From contig CM075991.1 of the NCBI GenBank assembly GCA_038087875.1, positions 12,588,001-12,652,000 on the forward strand: a stretch of DNA of 64,000 bases. Reading direction: 5' to 3'. The notes under the pieces are model-generated. The model searched no databases and was not told the origin of the DNA. It saw nothing but the letters and a program-made list of their open reading frames with translations. Origin of the DNA: Malacoraja senta. Taxonomy: Eukaryota. Numbering within the stretch: position 1 is the stretch's first letter; each line of letters begins with the position of its first letter. The position numbers were made by a program, and so were the translations under genes. Positions 1 to 62,649 of this stretch are shown in pieces.

Positions 1-1080
1 CCTCAGGGCCCAAGATTTAGGAAAGGAGTGTGGAGGGAAAAAAAGCAGGCAGTCCAGGACAGGGGGCAAAGTACTTTTTAAAAGTCAGTGATAAAACACA
101 TACCTGGTTCCAGTTGCTTCTGGATGTTGGGGCCAAAGTGTGATATGACAGGTGGACTGTGGAGCATTTCATCCCAGTCTCTTCTGCTGAGCCAAGAGAC
201 TTAGATGTTCATGTAGCAGGTTAAAATAATTAAATCCATCTTGTCTGACGAATTGGCACAGGAATGGGTTACAGAGGGCCAAATAGCCTACAGACCAGGA
301 CGTCTTTGGGATGTGGGAGGAAGCCCACGCGATCACAGGGAGAAAGTGCAAACTCCACACAGACAGCACCCAAGGTCTGAATCAAACCCGAGTCTCTGGC
401 TCTGTGAAGCAGCAGCTCTACCAGCTGCGCCACTGTGCCACCCTGGTAACGTTCATTGTAAACATGAGCATGAGCTGGTGTCTGACCGTCAGATGCTGCT
501 GCTCTTCGGGGATTGGGTAGGTTACTGACACGATGTTGTAAGAAGCAGTCACCTCGAATTTGATCAGTTGTCAGGGATAGGAGGGTATGAGTGAGTAGAG
601 GGATCTAAAGTGTAGCACTCAAAGCACCTCCCTCCCTCGATTTTCTCAACTCCAAAAAGGGTAATATAAAGTGGTATAAAATTGTTGCTTGAAGTGCACT
701 GAGTAAACTGATTAGAAACATAGAAAATAGGTGCAGGTGCAGGCCATTCGGCCCTTCGAGCCAGTGAGTGAACTTTATTTAAATAACTCATTCATAACTG
801 TGAGAGAATTTCGCTAAACTTTGACAGTTCTGCTTGTTGACATGTGTTGCGAAACTTGAGATTCCGCATTGTTCTCAGGAAAGCCTGGGCCAAATGATTG
901 GAGCATTGTGTACGGATATCTGTTTCTTTGTGCGTGATGTTATTATCTGTTACCTGCAAATCCAGCAGCGCCCATGTGCGGGTCTGAGTAATGTAAATTA
1001 TGTGGTTTCGATAAAATCGCAACGCCCTGACTAAACTATCTAAGGAACTAAGATATGTGCTGGTCTGCACATATACTTGT

Positions 1081-1418
1081 TTAAGAAGGAACTGCAGATG
1101 CTGGAAAATCGAAGGTAGACAAAAGTGCTGGAGAAACTCAGCGGGTGCAGCAGCATCTATGGAGCGAAGGAAATGGGCAACGTTTCGGGCCGAAACCCTT
1201 CCGGGTTTCGGCCCGAAACGTTGCCTATTTCCTCCAGTCTGAAAAAGGGTTAAGGCCCGAAAAGTTGCCTATTTCCTCCAGTCTGAAGAAGGGTTTCGGC
1301 CCGAAAAGTTGCCTATTTCCTCCAGTCCGAAGAAGGGTTTCGGCCCGAAACGTTGCCTATTTCCTTCGCTCCATAGATGCTGCTGCACCCGCTGAGTTTC
1401 TCCAGCACTTTTGTCTAC
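1081..1418. mobile_element. Penelope-like element 3'-end insertion: inverted arms with 3 tandem 44-bp hammerhead-motif units
   Basis: 16-bp TSD ctgcacatatacttgt at 1065-1080 and 1419-1434; arms are reverse complements. Confidence 0.8.
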
Positions 1419-2360
1419 CTGCACATATACTTGTGTGTTTGGCAGTATATACACCTGTGTGCTGTCTGTACTCTGGACGAGCTGTCTCCCAGGGCAGTTC
1501 CTCCGTGATATCATCTAATAAAGTCTCGTTCTCCAGAAGTCCGAGTCCTCTATTGATTTCTCTGGCAATAACACTAGGCAGAAATGTATTTAGAAAAGTT
1601 AAAAAGAGGAATCCCAGGAGAAAGTTGAACATTAACCTATTACTACTGGGTGGAAAGATTCGTTTTCTGGCCACTTGGAGTCAATAATGACAAACACACA
1701 CTACATCGGGTTGTACCTTCATGGAGGAGACACTTACACCTTTGTTGCAGCCTGCTCACTAAGTCCTCCACCTGTAACCTGAAACTAGCTGAGAGAGGTG
1801 ACAATAAGTGGCTGTGTGCTCCATATCCACACATTTCATAGGCCAGCCAACCCTGGTCCAATGCATCAATGTACAGTTCTCAGTAGCAGCATGGATTCAT
1901 GGTCAAGTCTCCTGACCAAGACAACTTGGCAACAGCTCACATGTGTTCTGGCGAAGGTCAAGTAACTTTGCTCAATTTAAACTTCAGGGTGAGTTTAGCT
2001 TTGATTTTTCAACAAGCTTTAGGAAAAGAGGAAAGTGTAGCTTGAGTGTTGAGGGAGTGTCAGTGACGCAAGTGGGGTTGGTGCAAGCTCATGTGTCTAC
2101 TTGTTAACTTGCATGAATAGGCACCTCTTGGCTTAAAAAAAATCTATAAATAATATCTTCAAAACTCTCCCGCCACTATTCTCAACTGTGGACATATGCT
2201 TGCAATCTTTAGTCAAACTTTCCCTCAGTGTTTCCTCCCTTCCTTGGCCCAATCCCGCCCCTGTAAACCTTCACATGGAGAATCCTCTCCTCTATGCCTT
2301 TTTGGTGGTCTCTTATCTCCTCTTGCATGACTCAGCAGGTGCTATCTGCCATTTATTTAA

Positions 2361-3195: not shown

Positions 3196-50691
<47,496 letters not shown>

Positions 50692-51321: not shown

Positions 51322-52289
51322 CAACGTTCTCTTCACGCATCACTTTGTTGTTTAGTTTTTAGAACAACTTGCAACGTGTTCTTTTGTTAAAGCAACTTGC
51401 TCCATTTCCAAAAGCGTTTCTTGGGAAGGTGAGGGAAAGGCTCCAGAAACATGAGAGGATGAGTGGAGGTGTGGATGTTTATAGTATTGCTGTGGTTTGT
51501 GGGGAAGGAAGGGGGCTGTGAATTGGGAAAGAAGAATGGAGACAAGAGCAAGACTTTGTGGTGGCGCAGCAGTAGAGCTACTGCCTCACAGCGCTAGAGA
51601 CCCGGGTTCCATCCTGACTACGGGTGCTGTCTGTACGGAATTTGTACCTTCTCCCCGTGACCTACCTGGGTTTTCTCCAAGATCTTTTGTTTCCTCCCAC
51701 ACTCCAAAGATGTACAGGTTTGTAGGTTAATTGCCTAGGTATAAATGTAAACTTGTCCCTAGTGTGTGTACGGTAGTGTTAATGTACGGGGATCGCTGGT
51801 CGGTGTGCAACTGGTGAGCTGAAGGACCTGTTTCCACGCTGTATCTCTAAACTAAAACTAAACCTTTTACAAATGCTCAGTTTTGGCAATTGGTTCTTGG
51901 AGGGCAGAGACGAGAGATGGTGGGAAAGTTTGGGACCAATTGTGTGAGGAAGTGAATGGAAGTGAATGGAAGAGTGTTTTATAGCAGACCATTCAAGCAA
52001 GATTTCAAAAGTCTAACAAACTTGAAAACATCCACAGCTCTCTGGGCTGGAGAATTCTCCTCTGTTTAATGAAACACCTCATTGTCAGTGACCAAACTCA
52101 TGGCCTCACAGGTTCTCACCTTCAGCCTGCCAGCATCTTTGCTTCCTACTTGTAAAGGCATAAATGACACCTTCAATGGCTGCAGTTCAAGGTGAGAGTG
52201 AAAAGTTACTGAACAGGAAACTGGCAGTCTGTAGTTAGGGGTGGAGTGTAGGGAAGGGTGTGTGCTGTTTGAAGGTCACTTGGGTTTTG

Positions 52290-52740
52290 GCAGCATCTGT
52301 GGAGAACATGGATAGGTGATGTTTCACAGAGTGCTGGAGTAACTCAGCGGGTCAGGCAGCATCTGTGGAGAACATGGATAGGTGACGTTTCACAGAGTGC
52401 TGGAGTAACTCAGCGGGTCAGGCAGCATCTGTGGAGAACATGGATAGGTGACGTTTCACAGAGTGCTGGAGTAACTCAGCGGGTCAGGCAGCATCTGTGG
52501 AGAACATGGATAGGTGACGTTTCACAGAGTGCTGGAGTAACTCAGCGGGTCAGGCAGCATCTGTGGAGAACATGGATAGGTGACGTTTCACAGAGTGCTG
52601 GAGTAACTCAGCGGGTCAGGCAGCATCTGTGGAGAACATGGATAGGTGACGTTTCACAGAGTGCTGGAGTAACTCAGCGGGTCAGGCAGCATCTCTGGAG
52701 AACATGGATAGGTGATGTTTCGGGTCAAGATGCTTCAGAC
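52290..52740 (-). repeat. 66-bp tandem array (~6.7 copies) of the PLE 3' segment, intergenic
   Basis: Units start at 52291, 52357, 52423, 52489, 52555, 52621 and 52687. Confidence 0.9.

Positions 52741-53383: not shown

Positions 53384-62649
<9,266 letters not shown>

Follow-up and report, generated by a model that had tools for sequence, protein, structure and literature searches.

Positions 1065–1434 of the window (the whole stretch of 64,000 nucleotides analysed here) are occupied by a single retrotransposition product, as the original prediction had it. To judge from its sequence, it is a 5'-truncated copy of an endonuclease-bearing Penelope-like element (EN+ PLE), and with regard to family type and architecture, both of which are already known, it is an ordinary example of its kind. 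We consider it highly probable that this copy was dead on arrival, that it arose by reverse transcription primed at both nicks of its target together with one jump of the reverse transcriptase, and that the array of 44-nt units enclosed in it is neutral.

Anatomy and family of the insertion

The insertion is framed by a direct repeat, identical 16-mers on the plus strand at 1065–1080 and 1419–1434. It spans 354 bp between the starts of these two copies and is without an open reading frame (ORF). The left copy, found by repeat matching, shares its last, inner 3 nt with the end of the element's tail, and the right copy its first, inner 2 nt with the element's short end. Since these inner letters match the element ends, the true target site duplication is 11–16 bp long. 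Contigs from four public sequencing runs end loosely before 1078 by the hundreds (173–429 contigs per run), which places the long end of the element at 1078; behind 1419, loose ends were seen in 65 contigs of one run. Among 5000 random pairs of ends with the same spacing, a direct repeat of 12–15 nt occurred in none and one of at least 16 nt in 88, the latter presumably owing to the long tandem arrays of the window.

Between the 16-mers lie two inverted arms of 89 nt each, 1113–1201 on the minus strand and 1332–1420 on the plus strand, which are alike at 88 of 89 positions (99% complementary). The left arm is a 5'-truncated pLTR copy that begins inside the hammerhead core and is without CUGA. 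The right arm is a sense copy of the terminal repeat and stops at the short, tail-less end. The complementarity of the arms had been predicted, but their comparison also reveals an extension of about 35 nt (1078–1112, minus strand), the PLE "tail", which is present on the left arm only and had escaped notice. One extra base (1202) marks the head-to-head, or fold-back, junction, and the 18-nt junction word at this site is found again at 54508 on the minus strand.

Behind the fold-back, Tandem Repeats Finder reports an array on the plus strand at 1203–1365, with a period of 44 nt, 3.7 copies and 93% matches. It opens with a partial unit of 31 nt (unit 0, 1203–1233), which runs from stem II onward, is without CUGANGA and pairs with 1168–1198, and continues with three full units starting at 1234, 1278 and 1322. 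Unit 1 (1234–1277) has the core CUGAAAA (G8A at 1244), two changed letters in stem II (1252–1253) and an A at position 15.2 (1263). In unit 2 (1278–1321) the core CUGAAGA is intact and position 15.2 is likewise A (1307), with no pairing to G16.2. Unit 3 (1322–1365) has the core CCGAAGA (U4C at 1328) and an intact palindromic 15.1–16.1, and continues into the right arm. The 16-bp duplication, the inverted arms, the three units with their starts, and the letters by which their cores differ (CTGAAAA, CTGAAGA and CCGAAGA) had all been foreseen correctly; the fourth, partial unit had been overlooked. Each unit was said to hold the ribozyme-like core only, which is roughly right, as it is composed of 5 nt, a 28-nt core and 11 nt. 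The full units differ by 6 changes in 132 nt, five of the six to A; a C-to-A change at unit position 30 is common to units 1 and 2, and the three unit junctions are identical, extra base included.

The arm sequence matches 53–55 places in the window. One longer sister copy (8575–9109, minus strand; arm about 80% alike) follows the C-terminal part of a PLE-type GIY-YIG ORF (8858–9109), and a second one (20408–20833, minus strand) follows a C-terminal GIY-YIG fragment with an in-frame stop (20606–20833). Both ORF fragments, the sole PLE-type endonuclease matches in the window, lie on the same strand as a family copy and about 100–200 nt upstream of it (2/2). On these sister copies, which directly follow the C-terminus of a GIY-YIG ORF, and on the published PLE architecture, the family is assigned to the EN+ PLEs. 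The ORF-bearing copies belong to a sister subfamily, linked to the subfamily of the insertion by a similarity of about 80%.

The fragment 8858–9109 has no match in Pfam. With the end of a protein labelled by one source as little skate it shares 71% identity, and the residues preceding that end match GIY-YIG weakly (E 0.008). An exhaustive search yielded 386 relatives of the fragment at E<=0.001. When 17 longer relatives were scanned, Pfam GIY-YIG (E<=0.05) was found in ten, in two of these above the gathering score, and RVT_1 in three. One of the relatives, 816 aa long and with 44% identity across the fragment, combines reverse transcriptase (RT) and GIY-YIG in one chain; an RT part of the ORF was not found in the 64-kb window. 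A search of PDB sequences with the fragment gave one chance match only, and neither metagenome nor viral contigs contained a match to sequence patterns of the family. In the closest long relatives a Cys-rich linker precedes the endonuclease, as judged by eye; the truncated fragments of the window do not include it. A Cys-rich, Zn-finger-like linker between RT and endonuclease is given as the mark of Neptune and Nematis in PMC8557442, and Neptune and Poseidon are named as the vertebrate PLEs in the preprint 10.64898/2026.07.22.740005. On these motifs, the element probably belongs to the clade Neptune, in a genome resembling that of a cartilaginous fish.

Other classes of element were rejected. 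A DNA transposon or MITE does not agree with two outer ends that are both 3' ends of a retroelement, with unequal arms and with longer copies carrying a PLE ORF, and as a microRNA hairpin the insertion scores far below gathering. Among other features of the window are a host exon at 41233–41631 on the plus strand, with a match to Pfam Transket_pyr (E 6e-11), which we take to resemble 2-oxoglutarate dehydrogenase E1, and a perfect 9-nt array at 38357–39691 (148 copies with 100% matches), which is free of stops in several reading frames and adjoins a TTA run and a PLE fragment.

Head-to-head architecture and tandem junctions

Nine head-to-head insertions of the family were picked from the match table of the window, and in every one of them (9/9) the tail is on exactly one arm; a duplication of 10–16 bp is present in four of the nine. 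For PLEs, PMC3846280 describes inverted terminal repeats with a 31-bp tail on one of them, duplications of 8–10 bp and palindromic inverted junctions as typical, to which PMC8557442 and PMC8969392 add partial tandems. The purified protein of an anole PLE cut and extended both strands in vitro, and its reverse transcription starts at two sites bounding the tail (both in PMC11167929). The outer junctions of the present insertion appear to be two such alternative 3' ends, the outcome to be expected of priming at both nicks. At 2350–2558, 1 kb downstream, a sister subfamily has left another head-to-head insertion; its tail is confined to the left arm, its AT-rich duplication is exact over 11 bp, and tandem units are absent.

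The following course of events would lead to such a product. The element protein would nick both strands of an AT-rich target, 11–16 bp apart, and each nick would prime reverse transcription on terminal-repeat RNA, a start at the far site giving an arm with tail and a start at the near site an arm without. Priming at each nick would explain why both outer junctions are 3' ends of the element and why the two copies meet head-to-head in the middle. One of the cDNAs would then reach the usual 5' stop (TCAGT) and resume 44 nt downstream, giving a partial tandem, whose junction would be multiplied to three either through additional jumps or, at a later time, through slippage or unequal exchange. 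After insertion the units would decay. Two points tell against this course: the bias of the unit changes towards A is without explanation, and PMC3846280 accounts for head-to-head junctions by a different mechanism, self-priming on an antisense template.

The original prediction tied the unit boundaries to the hammerhead motif, and in the window this is mostly not the case. Six tandem arrays of the family were found here. Besides the 44-nt array of the insertion, three have units of 66 nt, which begin behind stem II, and two have units of 34 nt, which begin within the core region. Both of these unit types lack CUGANGA, so that this motif is present in one of the six arrays and omitted by five. 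Since the arrays are not all independent, the fair count is one of three junction types with CUGANGA and two without. Boundaries unrelated to the motif, which had been named as the observation that would speak against the idea, are thus largely what the window holds. Back-jumps with still other boundaries were seen in contigs (1414 to 1355, 1411 to 1374, 1364 to 1333 and 1359 to 1280; taken from a small part of the joints in four runs, with short sides), and the last of those four alone would enclose the core. The 66-nt units belong to a PLE subfamily, share one junction at 46353–46610, 52289–52721, 58744–58898 and 54316–54464, reach up to 6.6 copies with 99% matches and are without hammerhead core. 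Arrays are also formed by another repeat family, at 32913–33217 (78 nt x 4) and 55515–55700 (36 nt x 5), presumably the 3' end of a CR1-type element. The hammerhead-bearing family is not the only one whose sequences have multiplied in tandem.

The 5' edge of the 44-nt unit is the commonest 5' end of the family, TCAGT, 5 nt before the core. Among 19 core-bearing copies, family sequence upstream of TCAGT was undetectable in 12, clear in four and borderline in three, a count biased by the choice of copies that bear the core and by upstream sequence that may differ between subfamilies. The hammerhead core lies within the unit because it sits right behind this 5' stop; the ribozyme is not needed for it. 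Ends clustered at TCAGT occur at 1239, 9606, 22200, 37500, 37917, 42263, 44305 and other places. At this site several copies have GAGT, and in one contig joint the A is preceded by an added G; a transcript start with a cap would be in keeping with this. We take TCAGT to resemble the initiator consensus, and it may therefore be the 5' end of the RNA. A similar initiator in a PLE terminal repeat is described in PMC3846280. At the 3' edge of the unit, 11 nt separate the predicted cleavage site from the junction behind it, and on this ground an origin of the junction from ribozyme-cut ends was ruled out. A spliced template, with the AG before the core as acceptor, was also considered.

Several junctions were found in identical form at more than one locus. 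The 66-nt junction occupies four loci and the 34-nt junction two; the fold-back word is present at two as well, and a third fold-back word, carrying a 1-nt deletion, was seen by eye near 58690. Furthermore, a composite block of 239 nt is common, at 97%, to 54386–54623 and 58580–58815, the flanks of which are not shared. Such recurrence reflects either fixed stop and landing sites of the RT or composites copied as such. In the second case, fold-back and 44-nt junction would have been copied together from a source element or RNA and re-mobilised by the PLE protein, and the units, which diverge more among themselves than the arms do, would fit this as well. We regard such an inherited composite as rather doubtful: the 44-nt junction occurs in the window at the 1065–1434 locus only, the left arm stops precisely where the tail of the family ends, which fresh priming would give and read-through of a source would not, and fixed RT stop sites would give recurrent junctions too. 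The two complex PLE insertions at 54276–54627 and 58540–58922 share the same 34-nt tandem, the fold-back and switches between subfamilies; here either a composite was copied twice or template switching is stereotyped.

A single RT junction may also have been raised in copy number later, by slippage or unequal exchange of DNA in the spacer of the inverted repeat, a course that dispenses with the repeated jumps of the original prediction and that we hold to be a serious if tentative possibility. It agrees with three junctions that are identical down to the extra base, with the C-to-A change shared by units 1 and 2 and with the arrays of 36–78 nt in other repeats of the window. On the other hand, the recurrence of junctions at other loci indicates that RT can repeat or inherit a junction, and an allele with another copy number, which contigs cannot show, was not seen. 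Given the identical junctions and the substitution common to units 1 and 2, one jump plus duplication at the DNA level fits equally well as three jumps. Template jumping would still be the most likely source of both the fold-back and the first tandem junction; that it was repeated is unproven, the three junctions being identical.

Support for the locus comes from assembled contigs of four public runs from three organisms (A, B and C), runs with word shares of 0.12–0.26 being left out. The runs listed for the window include none of RNA, which carries no information on expression. At the right junction, contigs from two runs of organism A (1398–1508 and 1394–1700) agree with the window letter for letter; they extend 22 and 26 nt into the element, less than the 31 letters of the bridging rule. 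A contig of organism B (1365–1699) bridges the junction with 22 of 335 letters different and 2 gaps, and one of organism C extends 24 nt into the arm. The insertion appears to be shared by organism B and is probably older than the species splits of the three organisms. The likeness of the arms does not fit well with this sharing and counts against the account given above: they differ at one of 89 positions, where about 6 differences are expected at 6.4% divergence (Poisson P ~0.02). Arm conversion, assembly smoothing or a wrong call of orthology could make the arms more alike than their apparent age. No empty site was found among the 15 joints listed (998 others exist). In two contigs the match breaks off at 1082, a pattern that empty copies of a low-copy repeat serving as target would produce. 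Low-copy repeats, with raised contig depth in all four runs, are included in the flanks 893–1064 and 1482–1574. In each of the four runs, contig depth over 1234–1264 is about 100–180 times as high as over the unique flank; it is not readable as copy number and gives a weak hint that the 44-nt junction recurs elsewhere.

None of the contigs listed spans the 44-nt units, and one may ask whether the loop of a long hairpin was assembled wrongly or given a faulty consensus, so that the array or its unit-specific letters are not genuine. The best runs hold 0.74–0.76 of the sampled words of 781–2330, and five of the six unit changes, those to A, lengthen A runs. Nevertheless we think an artefact very improbable, as five other arrays of the family in the window have clean junctions, the same kind of joints occurs in independent contigs of three organisms and the right junction is exact in two runs.

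A retrotransposition product of the proposed kind is, as a single locus, of little weight, being one of about fifty family pieces in the 64-kb window. It is useful as a record of the insertion mode of PLEs, which is still unsettled. Genome-wide counts of the one-tail rule (9/9 here), of clustered 5' ends and of recurring junctions could separate priming at both nicks from antisense self-priming.

The hammerhead motif in the 44-nt units

PLE hammerheads reportedly cleave as dimers, as a 2017 paper in RNA Biology is said to describe. In the majority sequence of the family, the motif is of the minimal type I: CUGANGA is followed by one extra base, stem II has 4 bp and starts with G-C, GAAA is present, 15.2–16.2 is palindromic, and loop III is missing. 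These are the features that PMC4209133 gives for minimal type I hammerheads in PLE terminal repeats, and the original prediction was right in recognising the minimal, dimer-type motif found there.

The units of the insertion have decayed from this motif in different ways. An intact core (C3-U4-G5-A6-N7-G8-A9 and G12-A13-A14) is present in one of three, unit 2. The palindromic 15.1–16.1 is present in unit 3 and the partial unit 0 only, while A15.2 faces G16.2 in units 1 and 2, and stem I consists in all units of 2 bp followed by A x C. No pair of units has two intact cores and a full helix III, and the idea that template jumps had built the arrangement a dimer-dependent hammerhead would need finds no support at this locus. 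Two consecutive complete hammerhead motifs, by which retrozymes are recognised in the preprint 10.64898/2026.07.22.740005, are not found either. In unit 1, G8A breaks the C3-G8 pair, the loss of which abolished cleavage by the anole ribozyme (mutants G8C and C3G; PMC11167929). The change U4C lowers activity and yet is tolerated in a viroid (PMC3088659); unit 3 might cleave slowly, with unit 2 as partner (three of four helix III pairs).

At gathering scores, Rfam gave no match in the whole window. On 1000–1500, even E<=10 gave no hammerhead, and the 16 sub-threshold matches were mainly hairpin models placed on the fold-back. In 19 copies of the family, helix II of 4 bp and helix I of 2 bp are possible, with 88% of the cells paired, and covariation is not beyond that of shuffles (88 of 500 shuffles reach the score), as is expected for decaying copies. 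The double-hammerhead fold proposed for the array is not predicted: when forced, its best folds reach –5 to –7 kcal/mol versus –38 for the free fold, and the outer stem II has a pair probability of at most 0.018 in four sequence contexts. For the whole insertion, the predicted fold is an 89-bp arm duplex that absorbs most of unit 3. Fold energies ignore core contacts and help by protein, and no intact dimer was folded as a control; they weigh less than the core defects.

A joint action of the repeats as two paired ribozymes is unlikely. That the tandem is an in-cis double hammerhead, cleaving a transcript across the locus as a minimal retrozyme-like unit, would agree with the features of the family motif (the extra base after A9, G10.1-C11.1, the palindromic 15.2–16.2, no loop III) and with the weak cleavage seen in vitro when such a motif was tested as a dimer and as a trimer (PMC4209133). 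Also, U4C need not abolish activity (PMC3088659), so that unit 3 might cut slowly, and tandem pLTR-derived hammerhead repeats of 51–972 bp are described from vertebrates, including one cartilaginous fish (10.64898/2026.07.22.740005). We give this reading hardly any credence, considering the missing pair of intact cores, the 2-bp stem I ending in A x C, the improbable outer stem II and the arm duplex that takes up most of unit 3, together with the absence of an Rfam hammerhead at E<=10, covariation within shuffles and the omission of the core by five of six family arrays. Moreover, ribozyme mutants were without effect on insertion of the anole PLE in vitro (PMC11167929), and eight of nine predicted frog retrozyme dimers remained uncleaved (10.64898/2026.07.22.740005). 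Most likely, the 44-nt array has no function.

The same locus might instead be the decayed member of a larger set, the 44-nt unit being a re-mobilised mini-array of rays and skates and the smallest retrozyme-like repeat, whose intact copies elsewhere would form protein-assisted double hammerheads and release 44-nt pieces. The chance of this is slight in our view, and the thin evidence for it consists of the recurring composite junctions in the window and the raised depth over unit 1 in three organisms. If intact 44-nt arrays did recur and cleave, they would represent the birth of retrozymes from PLE terminal repeats, which the present evidence disfavours.

Comparison with known systems

In the literature covered, which excludes most subscription papers, we found nothing on this PLE family or on 44-nt arrays. 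The supplementary tables of 10.64898/2026.07.22.740005 on the retrozyme families of one cartilaginous fish lie outside that scope and may contain the 44-nt unit.

With the EN+ PLEs described in PMC3846280 and PMC8557442 (Penelope/Poseidon, Neptune) the insertion shares head-to-head inverted repeats, a tail of 30–40 nt at one end and a short target site duplication, as well as the palindromic inverted junction, partial tandems and, in longer copies, a C-terminal GIY-YIG ORF upstream. It is unlike them in its extreme truncation (354 bp, no ORF) and in partial tandems that are internal 44-nt pieces and not whole 3' ends. Its duplication of 11–16 bp is longer than the 8–10 bp given for rotifer EN+ PLEs.

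The minimal PLE hammerheads of PMC4209133 likewise have CUGANGA, the extra base, a stem II starting with G-C, GAAA and a palindromic 15.2–16.2, and are of the dimer type. Their helix I has 4–5 bp versus 2 bp here, a length also given for a D. virilis variant. Helix II has 7–8 bp there and 4 bp here, the motifs are spaced by kilobases there and by 44 nt here, and in contrast to those ribozymes each of the three units here has a defect in the core or in helix III. Animal non-LTR retrozymes (PMC7229834, PMC6155905, 10.64898/2026.07.22.740005) resemble the array in their head-to-tail units with a type I hammerhead motif derived from PLE terminal repeats. Their units measure 51–972 bp (10.64898/2026.07.22.740005) or 150–450 bp (PMC7229834), whereas the unit here has 44 nt. 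Moreover, the present array holds fewer than two consecutive complete motifs, lies inside an ordinary PLE insertion and is known from DNA alone.

PAc, a Poseidon-type PLE of Anolis carolinensis (PMC11167929), differs in that the core here is CUGAAGA without a start codon, that the relatives of our family are Neptune-like and that this family is known from sequence alone. The two agree, however, in having two 3' ends about 35 nt apart, roughly 90 and 125 nt behind the core, in their AT-rich targets and in a product that fits extension of both strands.
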